From the NCBI RefSeq assembly GCF_965641715.1, contig NZ_OZ282453.1: 64,000 nt of DNA. One strand, given 5' to 3'. The notes beneath the pieces were generated by a model. That model saw nothing but the letters and a program-made list of their open reading frames with translations, had not been told where the DNA came from and ran no database searches. Made by a program: the position numbers and the translations under genes. Every line of letters begins with the position of its first letter. Positions within the stretch are counted from its first letter, which is position 1. This stretch comes from Escherichia coli (GTDB taxonomy: Bacteria; Pseudomonadota; Gammaproteobacteria; Enterobacterales; Enterobacteriaceae). Positions 2,325 to 62,053 of this stretch are shown here, in pieces.

Positions 2325-3392
2325 TTATTTCTTTTGGCATATCAAAAGTGTATGCCCAACGCCTAAATTATCGTGGCGCTCTGCTACCTGGAATCCTGCT
2401 TTATTCAGATAGTCGTAAAATTTCTCTGCACTATAGAAACGGCTGTTACCGTTTGCCATGCAGGTAAAATAAAGTGAGGACGCGTTCAGGCTAAACGATG
2501 CTGCTTCAAACCGCTGCGCATCCCAGAACAACTCCATGATGCAAACTTTTGCGCCAGGCTTCATTACGCTGGCAATTTTGCTGAGTATGCTAATTATTTG
2601 TTCGGGTGAAAAACAGTCTAAAAATTGGCTCATCCACCAGATATCAGCCTCGCCCGGTAATGGGGCATCGCTTAGCATATCCACCGCATGGAAATCTATG
2701 CGATCAGAAAAACCTGCATTCGCGATATTTTCTTTCGCTAGTACGATTTGTTGTGGCAGATCTAATAACGTCACGGCGATGTTTTCATTGTATTTGCAGC
2801 AACGCAAAGCCCACTTACCCGTATTACCGCCTACATCGTACAATGTTGTGGGGTTGTTGGCGAATACATAAGGCAGTGCGGCGTTAAATGCGCCATCTGA
2901 ATAGTAATGATCAAACGCAAACCAGCTTTCACGAGCGGCGTCTGGTAATTGCGAAAGTGCCGGATATATCGTCGACCAGTCGCCAAATACTTTTAACCCG
3001 GAAGGTTTTCCTTCATTGAGTGAATCGGCGAGGAAGAAGAGCCCCTGGTAACAGACATCCTGGGTGAAATCCATATTCACGCGAGTCATAGTGTCATGCA
3101 GGAGGTAATGACCGATTTTCGCCAGGTAATAAATTCCCTCTTTACAGGTAATAATTCGCCCGCTTAAGCCCATATCTAACAGAACGCTGGCAGCATATTC
3201 GTTGATATGGCTATGTTCGGTGATATCAGCCAGCGTTGCGCCATGTTTGCCTTGCCGATCCAGATATGAAAGTACACCCGCATTACGTAGGCAGAGTGCT
3301 GTTTGAAAAAGCATAGGGGCAAAGGCAATGCGTTGAGCTTCGGTAATCGCATCCAGTGCGCTAAGAGAATCCTGTTCGTACATGTTGGGCAC
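2325..3392 (-). CDS. Class I SAM-dependent O-methyltransferase
   Basis: ORF track; glycine-rich SAM-binding motif LYDVGGNTGKWA and acidic LLDLP motif. Confidence 0.8.
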   Translation of the reverse strand: MPNMYEQDSLSALDAITEAQRIAFAPMLFQTALCLRNAGVLSYLDRQGKHGATLADITEHSHINEYAASVLLDMGLSGRIITCKEGIYYLAKIGHYLLHDTMTRVNMDFTQDVCYQGLFFLADSLNEGKPSGLKVFGDWSTIYPALSQLPDAARESWFAFDHYYSDGAFNAALPYVFANNPTTLYDVGGNTGKWALRCCKYNENIAVTLLDLPQQIVLAKENIANAGFSDRIDFHAVDMLSDAPLPGEADIWWMSQFLDCFSPEQIISILSKIASVMKPGAKVCIMELFWDAQRFEAASFSLNASSLYFTCMANGNSRFYSAEKFYDYLNKAGFQVAERHDNLGVGHTLLICQKK

Positions 3393-3451
3393 AACCTGTT
3401 AAGAGGGAATTAAATTATTATCGGACCGCAACGGCCCGACTTTAGGAAGAA

Positions 3452-8528: not shown

Positions 8529-8837
8529 ATGGATTATTTAATTCCTGTTTGCCTGGGATTGCTGGGATTGTTCGCGATGTTCGCCCCCAATTGGCTGATG
8601 CCTGTTTTAATCGCCGTGGGGGGATGGCTGGTGGTACTTGCCTGTGGTTGGCTCTGGCTAATGATTTTTTTACCTTTACTTAACGGCGTCGGGCTTGCTT
8701 ATGCCCTGTGGTTGATGTTCAAAAGGCCATCATTCACGTCCCGCCTGGTTGCTACATGTTGTGTTATCTCCGTCATTCTGATGTTAGCGCTATATTACAC
8801 TTTCCTGACCATGCCACCGTTCCCGGCCCAGCACTAA
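8529..8837 (+). CDS. Hypothetical small membrane protein (102 aa); may be non-coding
   Basis: ORF track only; very hydrophobic; sits between convergent tusA and zntA. Confidence 0.2.
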   Translation: MDYLIPVCLGLLGLFAMFAPNWLMPVLIAVGGWLVVLACGWLWLMIFLPLLNGVGLAYALWLMFKRPSFTSRLVATCCVISVILMLALYYTFLTMPPFPAQH

Positions 8838-8869
8838 CCCTGATAGCCAGAGGCTATCAGGCAACACCT

Positions 8870-11068
8870 TTATTTCCTGCGCAACAACCTTAACGCATTC
8901 GCCGTTACCAGCACCGTCGCACCCGTATCTGCCAGCACCGCCAGCCATAGTCCGGTCATTCCTAACAGCGTGGTGACGAGGAAGATCCCTTTCAGCCCCA
9001 GCGCAATAGTGATGTTCTGGCGGATATTGGCGTGAGTGGCGCGTGCCAGTTCAATCATTTGCACCAGACCGCGCAGGTGGTTATGGGTTAATGCTGCGTC
9101 GGCGGTTTCCAGCGCCACGTCTGTGCCGCTGCCCATTGCAATCCCGATGGCGGCAGCTTTCATCGCTGGCGCGTCGTTAATACCGTCACCGACCATCGCC
9201 AGCGGCGCATGTTGATTCAGCTCGGTCACCGCTTTGACTTTATCTTCCGGCAACAGGCCCGCTTTAAACTCCAGCCCCAGCTCCCCGGCAATTGCCGCCG
9301 CTGCGCGTGGATTATCGCCGGTGAGGATCACCCCTTTGACGCCCAGCGCGTTCAGTTCACTGATGGCAGTTGCAGCATCGGCGCGCAGGGTATCCTGTAA
9401 CGCAATGACACCAAGCACGTCATCGTTACGTACTACCAGCACTACCGTTTGCCCGGCGCTTTCCAGTTCGTTAATTAAACCAGCAAATGCATCAGCGGGA
9501 TGTTTCCCGGCAGCGCAAATCAATACGCGCTCACCGTTAACCTGCGCTTCAATGCCAGACCCGACCAGCGCCCGCTGTGATTCGGCGGCGGGAATGGCGA
9601 GTGCAGCAACCTGTGCTTCGCGCACGATGGCCTGCGCCAGTGGATGCGTCGCGCCTTGCTCGACCGCCGCCGCCAGTGTCAGCAGTTCAGATTCACTAAT
9701 ACCCGTTGCCGGATGAATCGCGGTAACGCGCGGTTTACCGACGGTCAGCGTACCGGTTTTATCAAACGCCACCTGGGTAACACGACCTAGCTGCTCCAGC
9801 GCCGCACCGCCTTTAATTAACGCCCCACGACGTGCCGCTGCTGCCAGCCCGGAGGTAATCACCGCGGGCGTGGAGATAACTAACGCACACGGGCAGCCAA
9901 TCAGCAGCAGCGTCAGCCCTTTATAAATCCACTCCTGCCAGCTTGCGGCAAACAGCAGCGGCGGCACCAGCGTTACCAGCAGGGCGACGGCCATAATTGC
10001 TGGCGTATAAATGCGGCTGAAACGGTCGATAAACCGCTCAATGGGGGCGCGGCGCTCTTCGGCTTCTTCGATCAGTTTCAGAATCCGGTCAATGGCGCTG
10101 GCACCCGGTTCTGACAGCACTTCCAGCGTTACCAGACGGTCTACGCTGGTGGCGCCTGCAGGAACTTTATCGCCCGTCGCGCGCTCCACCGGAATGGATT
10201 CTCCGGTCAGGGCGCTTTCATCAAAACTGGCAAACGGTGAGAGCAGTTTACCGTCGGCAGGCAAACGCCCACCTGCGGCGACTTCAATCACATCGCCAGG
10301 GCGCAGGCTGTTAATCGCCACCTCTTCCCGCTCACCGTTACGCAGGCGCGTGGCGGTTTCTGGTTTCAGCGCCATTAACGCGCTAACGCCCTGACGCGCG
10401 CGGCTGGCGGCCCAGCCTTCCAGTCGTTCACCAATCAAAAACAGCAGCAACACCATCGCAGCTTCAGCCGTTGCGCCAATAAACAGCGCACCAATAGCAG
10501 CTACGCTCATTAAGGTTTCAATGGCGAAGTAGCTGCCGGATTTGATCAGCCGTAATGCCTGACGAGCAATCGGGTACAGCCCAACCAGCGTGGTCGCGAT
10601 AAACGCCAGTTGCCCGAACGGATGATTGAACTGCTCCAGACCCCAGCTGATTGCCATCATCACGATTAGCGTAATCAGCGGCAGATTCTCTTTCAGGCGC
10701 GATTCTTGTGGCTCGTCGGCGGCCTGCTCATCGCGCAGGGAATAGCCCGCTTTTTGCACCGCAGATTCAACCTGGGCACGGATGTCATTGTCGGCATCAA
10801 CCACCAGTTTTTCGGTGGCGAACAGTACCTGCACCTGATTCACGCCTGCAAGCTGGCGCACGGCATTTTCTACCTTGCGCGCACAGGCGGCGCAGTCCAT
10901 GCCGCTGACTTTCCAGCTATAGCGGGTGCCGGAGACGTTTTCAGAGAGCGTTGGCGTGCTGGAACATGCGCCGTCGCAGCAACAGTCGTTGGCGTTCTGT
11001 ACCGTGGTTAGCGGTTTGAACGCAGCAAATTGAGGGGCTTTCTTGCCGTGATTGTCAGGAGTCGACAT
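8870..11068 (-). CDS. zntA: Zn/Cd/Pb-exporting P1B-type ATPase
   Basis: 732 aa; CxxC metal-binding motif (GMDCAAC), CPC, DKTGT phosphorylation site, GDGINDAP. Confidence 0.97.
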   Translation of the reverse strand: MSTPDNHGKKAPQFAAFKPLTTVQNANDCCCDGACSSTPTLSENVSGTRYSWKVSGMDCAACARKVENAVRQLAGVNQVQVLFATEKLVVDADNDIRAQVESAVQKAGYSLRDEQAADEPQESRLKENLPLITLIVMMAISWGLEQFNHPFGQLAFIATTLVGLYPIARQALRLIKSGSYFAIETLMSVAAIGALFIGATAEAAMVLLLFLIGERLEGWAASRARQGVSALMALKPETATRLRNGEREEVAINSLRPGDVIEVAAGGRLPADGKLLSPFASFDESALTGESIPVERATGDKVPAGATSVDRLVTLEVLSEPGASAIDRILKLIEEAEERRAPIERFIDRFSRIYTPAIMAVALLVTLVPPLLFAASWQEWIYKGLTLLLIGCPCALVISTPAVITSGLAAAARRGALIKGGAALEQLGRVTQVAFDKTGTLTVGKPRVTAIHPATGISESELLTLAAAVEQGATHPLAQAIVREAQVAALAIPAAESQRALVGSGIEAQVNGERVLICAAGKHPADAFAGLINELESAGQTVVLVVRNDDVLGVIALQDTLRADAATAISELNALGVKGVILTGDNPRAAAAIAGELGLEFKAGLLPEDKVKAVTELNQHAPLAMVGDGINDAPAMKAAAIGIAMGSGTDVALETADAALTHNHLRGLVQMIELARATHANIRQNITIALGLKGIFLVTTLLGMTGLWLAVLADTGATVLVTANALRLLRRK

Positions 11069-55160: not shown

Positions 55161-57626
<2,466 letters not shown>

Positions 57627-57642
57627 GTTCGCTAAAAAACAG

Positions 57643-57670
57643 AACGGGGCCACAAGGTCCCGTTTTTTTT
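57643..57670 (+). terminator. Rho-independent terminator after glgP
   Basis: Hairpin acggggccacaaggtcccgt followed by TTTTTTTT. Confidence 0.7.
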
Positions 57671-57742
57671 CGCCTTTATTTCGGAAAAGTGTCCAGAGGG
57701 GGCGAGGGTTCTCGGGGAGTATAATTCCGTCATTCAGGAAGA

Positions 57743-59260
57743 ATGGACAGAATGATGCCAAATAGAAAATGGATTTTGACCTCGCTGATAATGACTTTTT
57801 TCGGCATCCCCATACTGGCGCAATTTTTGGCAGCGGTTGTTGCCATGCTGGGTGTCGGGCTTACCGGTATTATTGAAGTTTGTAATATCCTTATCACGCC
57901 AACAATTTATCTTCTACTCAACGTCTTTATGCTGACGCTGGGGGCGATAATAATATTTTTCTCTGGTCGCGTGTGGGCCGGTGATAGCGCGCCAGAAAAC
58001 AGAGAAATAGCCGTCTGGCGGCAATGCTTTTTTCTCTTACCCGCGCTATTAACCTTGGTTGGCTGGATAATCACGCTACATCTGGCAGATTATCAATTTC
58101 GCCAGATGGGAGCTGGTTGGTTGGCAAACCTTATGCTTCCCTGGTTGGGCGTTTTTTTAGTCTCATTAGTGGGTGGTGAGTACTGGTGGATGGTCATTAT
58201 TCCCGTTGGGGCGCATATCAGTTTTTCGCTGGGATACGCCTGGCCGACCAGATATCCTTTATCCGGCACGTCCGGACTACGTTGCCGTAACTTACTCCTG
58301 TTTCTACTTATCTTACTTGGTATTGTCGCCGGGTATCAGGCCCATTTATATAAGCAGCAAAATCCTGGTGTCGGTGTACGCGAAAATATTGATATCTGGG
58401 CCTGGCGACCCGATAAACTCAATAATCGACTGACGCCGCTGCGTGGCAAACCGCAAATTCAGTTTAGGCAAAACTGGCCGCGAATCGATGGCGCCACGGC
58501 TGCGTACCCAATTTATGCTTCTGCATTTTATGCATTAAGTGTAATACCAGAGGATTTTCACGTTTGGGATTATCTGGAAAACTCTCGTACGCCAGAAGCA
58601 TATAACAAAATCGTTAAGGGCGATGCTGATATTATTTTCGTGGCGCAACCTTCCGGTGGGCAAAAAAAACGTGCAAAGGAATCTGGTGTCACTTTGGTGT
58701 ACACCCCCTTTGCCCGTGAAGCATTCGTTTTCATCGTCAATGCGGATAATCCGGTTAATTCCCTGACTGAACAACAGGTGCGTGACATTTTCAGTGGTGC
58801 AATTACCAATTGGCGTACTGTTGGCGGTAACGATCAGGAGATCCAGACCTGGCAGCGCCCGGAAGACTCTGGCAGCCAGACAGTGATGCAATCACAGGTC
58901 ATGAAAAATGTCCGCATGATCTCGCCGCAGGAAACGGAAGTGGCAAGCGTGATGGAGGGAATGATTAAAGTCGTTGCCGAATACCGTAATACAAACAACG
59001 CAATAGGCTATACCTTCCGCTATTACGCGACGCAAATGAATGCCGATAAAAATATAAAACTGCTAGCGATTAACGGTATTGCACCGACTGCGGAAAATAT
59101 TCGCAATGGCAAATATGCGTACATCGTCGATGCATTTATGGTGACGAGAGAAAATACAACGTCAGAAACACAAAAACTGGTCGAATGGTTTTTAACGCCG
59201 CAGGGGCAGAGTCTGGTAGAAGATGTGGGATATGTGCCGCTGTATCCAACAATGGAATAA
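57743..59260 (+). CDS. Polytopic membrane domain fused to PstS-like periplasmic binding domain (505 aa)
   Basis: N-terminal ~200 aa with several hydrophobic segments; C-terminal ~300 aa paralogous to the next gene. Confidence 0.7.
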   Translation: MDRMMPNRKWILTSLIMTFFGIPILAQFLAAVVAMLGVGLTGIIEVCNILITPTIYLLLNVFMLTLGAIIIFFSGRVWAGDSAPENREIAVWRQCFFLLPALLTLVGWIITLHLADYQFRQMGAGWLANLMLPWLGVFLVSLVGGEYWWMVIIPVGAHISFSLGYAWPTRYPLSGTSGLRCRNLLLFLLILLGIVAGYQAHLYKQQNPGVGVRENIDIWAWRPDKLNNRLTPLRGKPQIQFRQNWPRIDGATAAYPIYASAFYALSVIPEDFHVWDYLENSRTPEAYNKIVKGDADIIFVAQPSGGQKKRAKESGVTLVYTPFAREAFVFIVNADNPVNSLTEQQVRDIFSGAITNWRTVGGNDQEIQTWQRPEDSGSQTVMQSQVMKNVRMISPQETEVASVMEGMIKVVAEYRNTNNAIGYTFRYYATQMNADKNIKLLAINGIAPTAENIRNGKYAYIVDAFMVTRENTTSETQKLVEWFLTPQGQSLVEDVGYVPLYPTME

Positions 59261-59285
59261 CGCTCGAGAGAAAGGAATCAGCGAG

Positions 59286-60278
59286 ATGAATAAATTCACC
59301 GGTGTTTTACTATTAGGCACGGCGTTACTGGCGGGATGTGTCGACCGGGAAGGGTACTATAACAGCGTCAGGGAAGAAGAGAGCCATGGACTGACGTCTC
59401 TGCGGGGGCAACCTGCATTACGTTACAGCGATGATTGGTCAAGATGGCCGAGAGTGTACGGCGCTACAGCCTTATACCCGCTGTATGCCTCCGCGTATTA
59501 TAAATTAGTACCCGAGCCAAAAGATAAGGATCGAACCTCGCTGGCCTGGCAGGCGTATGGTTTGCAGCAAACCCGAACAGCTGAAGCCTACGATAGTCTG
59601 ATTAAAGGTTCCGCGACGGTTATTTTTGTTGCACAACCGTCGGAAGGACAGAAAAAACGTGCAGAAGAAGCGGGTGTTAAACTGAAATATACCGCTTTCG
59701 CCCGCGAAGCCTTTGTCTTTATCGTTGATATTAATAACCCGGTAAATTCTCTCTCTGAGCACCAGGTTAAAGATATTTTTAGCGGCAAAACTAGCCGCTG
59801 GAATAAAGTAGGTGGTAGTGACGAACATATAAAAGTCTGGCAGCGCCCTGAAGATTCTGGAAGCCAAACGATTATGAAGGGATTGGTTATGCAAGACACC
59901 CCAATGCTGCCAGCTAAAAAATCCACTGTGATTGATCTTATGGGCGGTTTAATTACTGAAGTTGCCGACTATCAAAACACGCCATCTTCCATTGGGTACA
60001 CCTTCCACTATTACGTCACTCGTATGAATGACAATATGCTCAAAATGCGCAAGCAGATTAAACTTTTGGCTATAAATGGCGTTGCGCCTACCGAGGAAAA
60101 TATCCGCAACGGCACTTATCCATACATTGTGGATGCCTATATGGTGACGCGTGAAAATCCCACGCCGGAAACGCAGAAATTTGTTGACTGGTTTATAAGT
60201 CAGCAGGGGCAACAGTTGGTAGAGGATGTGGGGTATGTGCCGCTGTATGAAGCATCCCCCGAATCATCAGGACAATAA
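59286..60278 (+). CDS. PstS-like periplasmic binding-protein lipoprotein (about 330 aa)
   Basis: ORF 59223..60278; start MNKFTGVLLLGTALLAGC (lipobox); about 60% identical to the C-terminal domain of the upstream gene. Confidence 0.7.
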   Translation: MNKFTGVLLLGTALLAGCVDREGYYNSVREEESHGLTSLRGQPALRYSDDWSRWPRVYGATALYPLYASAYYKLVPEPKDKDRTSLAWQAYGLQQTRTAEAYDSLIKGSATVIFVAQPSEGQKKRAEEAGVKLKYTAFAREAFVFIVDINNPVNSLSEHQVKDIFSGKTSRWNKVGGSDEHIKVWQRPEDSGSQTIMKGLVMQDTPMLPAKKSTVIDLMGGLITEVADYQNTPSSIGYTFHYYVTRMNDNMLKMRKQIKLLAINGVAPTEENIRNGTYPYIVDAYMVTRENPTPETQKFVDWFISQQGQQLVEDVGYVPLYEASPESSGQ

Positions 60279-60402
60279 TGATGAATATAATCAGACTTTA
60301 TATTTATCCGTTATTTCTCGGCTTTGTTATTGTGCCGTTGTTGGTGTGGCCGATGGTGGTTGCGCTGGCTGCTTGTATTATCGTTGACAAAGTGCACTTT
60401 GT

Positions 60403-60437
60403 TCATGCCTGATGCGGCGTGAACGCCTTATCAGGCC
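60403..60437. repeat. REP element
   Basis: gcctgatgcggcgtgaacgccttatcaggcctac. Confidence 0.7.
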
Positions 60438-60547
60438 TACAAAATCATGCAAATTCAATATATTGCATAAACCACGCATCAGGCAATTTTGTGTTTGTCA
60501 TCAGTCTCAGGCCAGATTGAAATCTGACCTGATCACCTTACGTTAAT

Positions 60548-62053
60548 TTATGACGCCAGCGACAACTTCTGCTGCGTATATTCCACCAGCCACTGACTCA
60601 CACGAGATTGTTGATCCGCATTCAGCCACATGCCTTGTTTTGTGCGACGCCACAGGGCATCGTCGGCGCGGCGGACCCATTCGTGATCCACCAGGTATTT
60701 CAGTTCCGCTTCGTAGAACTCATGACCGAAATCCTCCCCGAGGTCGCTTATCGCCCCCGCATTGCCGAGCAGCAGCTCGCTGTTGCTGCCGTAAGTGCGT
60801 GCGTAATGACGCGCCAGCGATTCAGTCAGGAATGGATAGCGACGGCGCAGACGAGCGGCATAATCGTCGCGGTCGCCTTCAATGGCACCACCCGGTAGCA
60901 CGCTCTCTTTCGTCCACGCCGGGCCAATACCCTGATAATACGGCGTCAGTTTTTCCAGCGCATGTTCCGCCAGTTTGCGGTAGGTGGTCAGCTTACCGCC
61001 GAATACCGACAGCAGCGGTGCTTTGCCATTTTCATCATGAATATCAAGGGTGTAATCACGGGTAATAGCCTGCGGCGAGTCGGACTCATCATCACACAGC
61101 GGACGCACACCGGAGTAGGTCCAGACGATATCGTCACGGCTTAACTGCTTTTTAAAGTGCGTGTTATACACTTTCAGCAGGTAATTGATTTCACTCTCTT
61201 CAATCTTCACTGCTTTCGGATCACCTTTGTATTCCACATCGGTGGTGCCGATGATGGAAAACTCGTCCATCCACGGGATCACGAACACAATGCGTTTATC
61301 TTCGTTTTGCAGAATGTAGGCCTGCTTTTGGGTATGCACGCGCGGCACCACAATATGGCTGCCTTTGATCAGGCGAATGCCATAAGGCGAAGGCAGATGC
61401 ATCCCGTCGTCGAAGAACTGTTTCACCCACGGGCCGGTGGCGTTAACCAGGCCGCGCGCTTGCCAGCTATATTTTTTGCCGGTATCGATATCTTCCGCTT
61501 CCACAATCCACAGGCCGTTTTCGCGGCGAGCAGAGGTGGCGCGAGTCCGAGTAAGCACTTCGCCGCCTTTACGCACCACCATCTGGGCGTTGGCGAGTAC
61601 CAGACGGGCGTCGTCTACCCAACAGTCAGAATATTCGAATCCGCGCTTAATTTCCGGTTTTAACACTGAATTTGCGCCAAAACGCAAACCAGTTGATCCC
61701 GGCAGGCTGGTGCGTTTACCCAGATGATCGTACATAAACAGACCAATGCGAATCATCCACGCCGGGCGCAGATGCGGACGATGTGGCAGGCGAAAACGCA
61801 TCGGGAAGGCGATATGCGGGGCCATTTTCAGCAGCACTTCACGTTCAGCCAGCGCCTCGCTGACCAGGCGGAATTCATAGTGCTCAAGGTAGCGCAGGCC
61901 ACCGTGAATGAGTTTTGAACTGGCGGAAGAGGTCGCGCAAGCGAGATCCTGCGCCTCCAGCATCAGCACGGATAAACCGCGTCCAGCGGCGTCTGCCGCG
62001 ATACCAGCACCATTGATGCCGCCCCCTATCACAATCAGATCTTTGGTTTCCAT
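60548..62053 (-). CDS. glpD: Aerobic glycerol-3-phosphate dehydrogenase
   Basis: ORF 60548..62068; start METKDLIVIGGGINGAG (FAD-binding) gives 501 aa. Confidence 0.97.
   Translation of the reverse strand: METKDLIVIGGGINGAGIAADAAGRGLSVLMLEAQDLACATSSASSKLIHGGLRYLEHYEFRLVSEALAEREVLLKMAPHIAFPMRFRLPHRPHLRPAWMIRIGLFMYDHLGKRTSLPGSTGLRFGANSVLKPEIKRGFEYSDCWVDDARLVLANAQMVVRKGGEVLTRTRATSARRENGLWIVEAEDIDTGKKYSWQARGLVNATGPWVKQFFDDGMHLPSPYGIRLIKGSHIVVPRVHTQKQAYILQNEDKRIVFVIPWMDEFSIIGTTDVEYKGDPKAVKIEESEINYLLKVYNTHFKKQLSRDDIVWTYSGVRPLCDDESDSPQAITRDYTLDIHDENGKAPLLSVFGGKLTTYRKLAEHALEKLTPYYQGIGPAWTKESVLPGGAIEGDRDDYAARLRRRYPFLTESLARHYARTYGSNSELLLGNAGAISDLGEDFGHEFYEAELKYLVDHEWVRRADDALWRRTKQGMWLNADQQSRVSQWLVEYTQQKLSLAS

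Follow-up and report, generated by a model that had tools for sequence, protein, structure and literature searches.

A tandem pair of PstS-fold genes between glgP and glpD of Escherichia coli: members of a membrane-fused subfamily with relatives beside Rhs toxins

Genes and signals of the glgP-glpD interval

We have analysed a 64,000-nt stretch of Escherichia coli DNA (the window; positions are numbered on the whole stretch) with regard to 2 adjacent plus-strand open reading frames (ORFs), 57743-59260 (505 aa) and 59223-60278 (351 aa), which lie between glgP and glpD and are referred to here as gene 1 and gene 2. An earlier note, made from the sequence alone, had described them as tandem same-strand paralogs of roughly 60% identity with a PstS-like solute-binding fold, and the peptides that it quoted were all located. 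By BLASTP, the 2 products share 59% identity and 75% positives over 286 aa (E = 6e-117), a similarity far above chance, and the genes are diverged tandem paralogs on the same strand. As we describe below, the pair belongs to a distinct, widespread and unnamed PstS/PBP_like_2 subfamily, in which the ancestral architecture joins a polytopic membrane domain to a binding domain, as in gene 1. Gene 2, a lipoprotein, has relatives that lie directly behind Rhs toxin domains. The features of the interval are as follows.

55179-57626: glgP, left flank of the pair
57643..57670, plus strand: intrinsic terminator of glgP, read from the sequence, with a 9-bp stem AACGGGGCC/GGTCCCGTT, the loop ACAA and then a T run
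57720..57725, plus strand: perfect TATAAT hexamer, read from the sequence, 27 nt upstream of the gene 1 start
57752..59260, plus strand: gene 1, 502 aa, N-terminal polytopic membrane domain and periplasmic PBP_like_2 (PstS-fold) domain
57752..58360, plus strand: membrane domain of gene 1, aa 1-203, about six long helices
58490..59257, plus strand: binding domain of gene 1, aa 247-502
59286..60278, plus strand: gene 2, 330 aa, lipoprotein with the binding domain only
60278..60412, plus strand: gene 3 remnant, 44 codons, truncated membrane-domain-only paralog of the gene 1 N-terminus
60380..60384: deletion junction, placed by blastn of the K-12 and O157 loci (L002 and L003) against the window
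60407..60440: REP-like palindrome GCCTGATGCGGCGTGAACGCCTTATCAGGCCTAC, read from the sequence, just right of the junction
60548-62053, minus strand: glpD, right flank of the pair

The likely true starts of the 2 genes, 57752 and 59286, match the RefSeq starts of strain 100181, whose genome is 99.5% identical, and both are fitted by ribosome-binding sites, that of gene 1 being a Shine-Dalgarno sequence AGGAAG 10 nt before the start. The glgP terminator stands between glgP and gene 1. It was not listed by our consensus scan for promoters and terminators, which gave nothing above shuffled expectation and listed no promoter at the TATAAT hexamer; the latter is a possible -10 element, without a good -35 element. 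A consensus search for Pho boxes (CTGTCATNNNNCTGTCAT, up to 3 mismatches) gave no match in the interval, including the region near 57627-57751. No ABC (ATP-binding cassette) permease or ATPase gene adjoins the pair in the window, as had been claimed. A 379-aa minus-strand ORF (56622-57761), antisense to glgP and reaching into the start of gene 1, is almost certainly a spurious shadow ORF.

From 59286, gene 2 opens with the lipoprotein signal MNKFTGVLLLGTALLAGC, with the lipobox LLAGC. Its stop overlaps the start of the gene 3 remnant (TAATG). The remnant corresponds to the 5' part of the gene for a polytopic membrane protein of 200 aa, which is intact in O157:H7 (L003 4278-4880) and confined to the genus Escherichia; relative to O157, 523 bp are missing from the window. 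With a truncation in the window and a frameshift in strain GN03551, the gene is decaying repeatedly. Searches of Pfam and NCBIfam gave nothing useful for the 200-aa protein, for a 255-aa protein of the O26 islet described below, or for the Rhs toxin domain considered later. The program hhalign aligned the 200-aa protein with the membrane domain of gene 1 (probability 96.6%, E 6e-10, 170 columns), the score being 67 for the real alignment as against 10-15 for reversed and column-shuffled controls. Genes 2 and 3 thus look like a split second copy, binding-only and membrane-only respectively, and, given the homology of gene 3 to the membrane domain of gene 1, the full module is three genes (one fused, one binding-only, one membrane-only), which is incomplete in this strain. 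The earlier note had taken the pair to be an intact ancestral or accessory one. The accessory character is borne out by the distribution of both genes, given below, whereas the module as a whole is not intact; the truncated third gene had been overlooked, as had the membrane domain (about 200 aa) of gene 1, the failure of both genes to reach PstS thresholds, and the Rhs linkage.

A PstS-type binding domain in a membrane-fused subfamily

Both genes matched the Pfam model PBP_like_2 (PF12849) with E about 1e-29, the match of gene 1 (1.5e-29) extending over aa 247-485. An AlphaFold2 model of gene 1 (pLDDT 82.4) showed a stretch of about 200 residues in long helices and, after it, a Venus-flytrap domain. 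When this flytrap domain was compared with the PDB by Foldseek, the top matches were all PstS-like (9L8J, 4GD5, 1TWY and 4Q8R; E about 1e-14), with TM-scores, normalised on the target, of 0.66-0.79 for solved PstS-like structures. A family profile matched the 4Q8R sequence, Clostridium perfringens PBP-1, with E 6e-26. The fold that had been proposed was thus recovered both by profile and by structure, and the pairwise alignment, profile search and K-12 interval alignment that the earlier note had suggested all agreed with its claims. The best matches by sequence and structure, PBP-1 (4Q8R/4GD5), Synechocystis Sll0540 (9L8J) and Vibrio cholerae 1TWY, share only 19-23% identity with the family and are soluble or lipoprotein receptors that lack a polytopic domain.

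We used a profile alignment to 4Q8R, whose nine phosphate ligands are listed in PMC5381212, to map a putative anion site in gene 1. By this alignment, G247-A-T-A250 corresponds to G10-S11-T12-S13, T280 to S41, R369 to R125, and S373-G-S375 to S129-G130-T131, which places T249, A250 (through its backbone), T280, R369, S373, G374 and S375 at ligand positions. The pair has in common with PstS of the PstSCAB system the G-A-T-x loop near the N-terminus, a hydroxyl residue in the second loop and the R-x3-S-G-S/T loop; of the 8 classical anion-site positions of PstS, its binding domains retain 7. The full phosphate-ligand set is nevertheless incomplete in the alignment at the specificity residue. Ala298 of gene 1 aligns with Ser59 of 4Q8R, the counterpart of Asp56, which determines specificity in E. 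coli PstS; family members have Ala, Val, Gly or Leu here, and an invariant Pro-Ser follows (P300-S301 in gene 1). Judged from these alignments, the domains likely have a phosphate-type anion site with an altered specificity determinant. From the retention of 7 of the 8 positions, but with alanine at the Asp56 position, we infer that the ligand is probably phosphate, a close oxyanion or a phosphate-bearing head-group.

Full-length relatives of gene 1 in Escherichia, Salmonella, Klebsiella, Budviciaceae and Rahnella are everywhere annotated "PstS family". An exhaustive search gave 1482 cluster representatives at E <= 1e-30, and a genome scan with 2 signature motifs, GATAx[YL]P[LVI]YA and [AS][IL]GY[TS]FR[YW]Y, found members in Bacillota, Actinomycetota, Treponema, Verrucomicrobia, Planctomycetota and Prevotella. 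Gene 1 carries both motifs (GATAAYPIYA and IGYTFRYY). Gene 2 carries the first exactly (GATALYPLYA), but has GYTFHYY for the second, a histidine replacing the family-invariant arginine; it keeps 52 of 54 binding-domain invariants, departing at P319A and R423H. There was one further observation of this kind for gene 1: residue 456 (59117-59119) is Ala in the allele lineage formed by the window, O157 and strain 100181, and Pro in at least 90% of the family, the local sequence being GKYAYIV as compared with GxYPY.

The neighbourhoods of family members were compared in 80 genome loci. In nearly all of these, 3-6 hydrophobic segments lie upstream of the binding domain; gene 1 conforms to this pattern, whereas gene 2 lacks the polytopic domain and has its lipoprotein signal instead. 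The membrane domain is weakly conserved in sequence, with Pro20 as the sole invariant residue, yet when modelled alone it gave a confident structure (pLDDT 88.8, pTM 0.86). No relatives of this model were found among solved structures in the PDB, apart from generic helical bundles, and its matches in AFDB50 were limited to family members and a few short uncharacterised proteins. The membrane fold is therefore specific to the family. No transporter or ABC gene recurs beside family members in the 80 loci; an apparent "PstB" neighbour cluster in 15 of them proved to consist of ABC ATPases that are unrelated and vary in their distance from the family gene. In 9 of the 80 loci, mostly in Bacillota (L032, L037, L038, L047, L062, L072, L083, L087 and L093), the gene directly upstream of the membrane-fused gene encodes an XRE-family helix-turn-helix protein of 150 aa, a candidate regulator. 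In Rahnella (L010 8001-9485), the family gene stands alone between purB and phoPQ, beside a 52-aa glycoside-hydrolase fragment, and therefore moves as a single unit.

The RefSeq labels place both genes in the PstS family, and the PBP_like_2 fold is in keeping with these names. If the names were right in the functional sense, the products would be redundant PstS proteins serving the Pst phosphate ABC transporter. We consider this highly improbable. On the curated PstS model TIGR02136, gene 1 scored 123.7 and gene 2 119.1 bits, below the cut-off of 206.6, and on TIGR00975, the model for E. coli-type PstS, the score was 15.8 bits against a cut-off of 205. Moreover, gene 1 bears the approximately six-helix membrane domain, the specificity residue has not been conserved, the interval lacks a Pho box, and pstCAB is unlinked to the pair or its relatives both in the window and in the 80 other loci. 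Because of the sub-threshold scores, the alanine aligned with Asp56 and the lack of a Pho box or an ABC partner, neither gene is a canonical PstS.

Variation, deletion and selection at the islet

The interval between glgP and glpD, which has been named as a hotspot in a 2026 paper, is a hypervariable islet. We observed an O157-type form with three genes, an O26-type form with gene 1, 2 cytoplasmic-looking proteins and a membrane-only gene, a form with a fimbrial operon, the remnant-only form of K-12, and, in E. coli TA054, a form with gene 1, 2 further binding-domain genes and other cassettes. The TA054 islet (L106) is bracketed by 2 secreted proteins of about 141 aa (2987-3412 and 8636-9064) that are built of repeats Y(R/K)D(R/K)xGN. 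None of the islet proteins matched the PADLOC models for anti-phage defence.

The statement that K-12 has only the remnant yzgL at this place was confirmed by alignment. K-12 derivatives retain window positions 57401-57976, with 92% identity over this shared 576-nt stretch, and resume at 60384; yzgL (b3427) is the 5' 225 nt of gene 1, with which it shares the promoter region, and the remainder of gene 1 together with genes 2 and 3 has been deleted (about 57977-60383, or about 2.4 kb). As yzgL (L002 2253-2474) is recorded as 2-fold down-regulated in a table of the Cpx regulon (PMC2731931), the gene 1 promoter region would be transcribed, and responsive to envelope stress, in K-12. The right end of the K-12 deletion is also that of the gene 3 truncation in the window, and the palindrome lying immediately to its right suggests repeat-associated deletion. 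Judged by the E. coli REP consensus, this palindrome is a putative repetitive extragenic palindromic (REP) element.

Among 5426 complete E. coli genomes, 885 carry gene 2 (at least 80% coverage) and no fewer than 2786 carry a binding domain of the gene 1 type. The alleles of gene 1 are ancient: between the window and O26, the synonymous divergence (dS) of gene 1 is 0.44, as compared with 0.047 for glgP and 0.086 for glpD. Against the same O26 allele, dN/dS of gene 1 is 0.13 overall, 0.22 in the membrane part and 0.08 in the binding part, and the 2 E. coli allele groups of gene 2 differ by a dS of 0.32 with a dN/dS of 0.105; for both genes, dS ranges over 0.28-0.44. Low dN/dS across such deep alleles shows that genes 1 and 2 are maintained by purifying selection. 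A mosaic patch at 58532-58712 (gene 1 nt 780-960) is 82-88% identical to an O157 allele that is otherwise nearly identical. We considered conversion of gene 1 by gene 2 as its source but rejected this, since the patch does not derive from gene 2; it reflects recombination between alleles of gene 1.

These data bear on the possibility that, in this strain, the genes no longer have a function and are remnants in decay. Such decay would account for the truncation of gene 3 in the window and its frameshift in GN03551, for the loss of nearly the whole module from K-12, and for the departures from conserved residues noted above (Ala at the position of gene 1 where at least 90% of the family has Pro, and R423H in gene 2). 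Yet both frames are intact, dN/dS is 0.10-0.15 across deep alleles, and gene 2 retains all but 2 of its 54 invariants, so that we regard decay of the pair itself as very improbable.

The main alternative to the interpretation that we develop below is that the 2 products are orphan high-affinity receptors for phosphate, or for an oxyanion of the arsenate or phosphite type, with a nutritional or sensory role. They would catch the anion in the periplasm and pass it to an unlinked PstCAB, or would signal or sequester it through their own membrane domain, and the Rhs linkage would be secondary. The fold and most of the anion ligands are conserved across phyla, and inorganic phosphate is the ligand of nearly all PBP_like_2 proteins with a characterised structure (PMC10443332). 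In addition, most members of the family are solitary genes without a neighbouring toxin, and the binding domain is under strong purifying selection (omega 0.08). However, the sub-threshold PstS scores, the lack of a Pho box and the non-polar character of the aligned Asp56/Ser59 position are not what such a receptor would lead one to expect, and absence of the gene from about half of E. coli genomes, at a hypervariable locus, would be unusual for a nutrient system. This explanation also leaves without a reason the repeated placement of family lipoproteins at immunity positions, to which we now turn, and on balance we think it unlikely.

Linkage to Rhs toxins and a tentative reading of the pair

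Rhs effectors of type VI secretion systems (T6SS) carry the toxin in a C-terminal (CT) domain, and we call a gene that lies directly downstream of the CT on the same strand one in immunity position. Gene 2 paralogs at 3 loci occupy this position: one in E. albertii (L107) and 2 in Salmonella (L095 and L098). The E. albertii order is vgrG, a PAAR-Rhs effector whose C-terminus (CT at L107 5486-5896) belongs to the toxin family that is also present in the Salmonella loci, a gap of 84 nt from the toxin stop, the lipoprotein, and the next Rhs gene, the lipoprotein being the only gene between the toxin and that Rhs. In Salmonella, 2 binding-domain-only lipoproteins, 61-62% identical to gene 2, are embedded in an array of Rhs CT and PAAR fragments and immunity-type genes, and one of them directly follows an orphan Rhs CT. 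In a second Salmonella array, a CT that is 80-83% identical is again followed by a lipoprotein of the gene 2 family. The identities of CT and lipoprotein track each other (68% and 67%, and 80-83% and 82%, respectively) over these 3 loci from 2 genera. The CT domain had no match in Pfam and no sequence match in the PDB.

The first Salmonella array (L095 2229-12000, all on the same strand) also contains an Ntox34 fragment, HEAT- and Sel1-like immunity-type genes, and an HExxH metallopeptidase-like toxin with a lipoprotein behind it. In E. coli EC42405, a family lipoprotein lies between 2 Rhs genes, beside hcp and vgrG, behind a different CT that has a small immunity gene of its own, a pattern usual for a displaced orphan. 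The resemblance of the gene 2 paralogs to known Rhs/T6SS immunity genes is thus considerable: they directly follow a CT, diverge together with it, persist as orphans between Rhs genes, and are lipoproteins, as are many immunity proteins against effectors that act in the periplasm. Gene 2 itself differs in that no homolog of the toxin CT lies near it in the window, and it is therefore an orphan at best, with a putative protective role.

We tentatively favour the reading that gene 2 is an orphan immunity-type lipoprotein and that gene 1 is a membrane-coupled binding protein, of phosphate type, from the parent family. The immunity-type assignment is made because binding-only family lipoproteins hold the immunity position behind one family of T6SS Rhs CT domains. 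By this reading, the binding domains would probably bind their phosphate-type ligand at the outer face of the inner membrane, probably working with their own membrane module and not with an ABC transporter; gene 2 would be envelope-protective, and the islet a competition or immunity islet. Possibly, protection would be achieved by binding the toxin, or else by binding a phosphate-bearing molecule that the toxin attacks.

Several observations weigh against this interpretation. The putative small-ligand pocket is strongly conserved across phyla, which is more typical of a ligand-binding protein than of an immunity factor that binds a protein. Behind more distant homologs of the toxin (46-48% identity) lie genes for small membrane proteins of three helices, and not a PstS-like gene. 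Neither the window nor any of the E. coli glgP-glpD islets that we examined contains a homolog of the toxin CT, and no Rhs motifs occur near the full-length membrane-fused genes in the 80 genomes. The case for gene 2 consists of family membership (58-64% identity to the Rhs-linked lipoproteins) and context. Finally, the residue mapping at Ala298 leans on the profile alignment and may shift by a few positions, and phosphate-type binding and protection are both predictions from sequence, model and context. The small three-helix proteins hint at action of these toxins at the inner membrane; homology between them and the family membrane domain was looked for by profile comparison and is unsupported (probability 9-20%).

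A different arrangement of the same elements would make the gene 1-type protein a receptor or target that the Rhs toxin exploits, with the binding-only lipoproteins as decoys, and with loss and diversification of gene 1 as the evolution of resistance. The lipoproteins in immunity position are indeed paralogous to the binding domain of gene 1. The allelic lineages of gene 1 are deep and its deletion is frequent, and membrane and binding modules occur both fused and split within the same islet. On the other hand, this scheme is reached by inference alone, and the overall dN/dS of 0.13 shows no positive selection. T6SS toxins are not known, as a rule, to require inner-membrane receptors, and we judge the decoy scheme improbable. 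More speculatively, a branch of the PstS fold may have been repurposed as a whole: the flytrap domain with its own membrane module would form a transporter-independent envelope system, its lipoprotein offshoots would serve as immunity proteins or decoys against an undescribed family of Rhs toxins, delivered by T6SS and active on the periplasmic side of the inner membrane, and the E. coli islet would be an orphan-immunity islet. This broader scheme is an unlikely one by our estimate, although less so than the decoy scheme taken by itself.

Both genes had been annotated in RefSeq, and the K-12 remnant yzgL was likewise already known. In the literature that we searched, we found nothing functional on yzgL or on PstS-like immunity proteins, and no description of the membrane-fused family, its split second copy, its immunity-position paralogs or any immunity protein with a PstS fold. 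Even if one reads the data more conservatively, a binding protein that is joined to a membrane domain peculiar to its family and lacks an ABC partner represents a candidate way for solute-binding proteins to work, and thousands of genomes carry genes automatically named PstS that probably stand outside phosphate uptake. If the immunity link is true, the solute-binding fold would be a new scaffold for immunity proteins and a new family of Rhs toxins would have been identified; the link would also explain the status of glgP-glpD as a recombination hotspot, its ancient alleles, and the loss of the module from K-12.

The glgP-glpD islets of Klebsiella and Salmonella carry a further lipoprotein, of the YbbD_head type, which is a protein-level homolog of K-12 ybbD; the latter lies right behind the Rhs fragment ylbH. 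This kinship of islet cassettes with genes of Rhs loci counts in favour of the immunity-type reading. A nucleotide search of E. coli with the Klebsiella YbbD_head gene gave no match. At one Salmonella locus (L009 9564-10109), a 181-aa protein that matches the NCBI model PRK09781 appears to be a deletion fusion, its N-terminus resembling an islet cassette of 234-236 aa and its remainder the YbbD_head lipoprotein.

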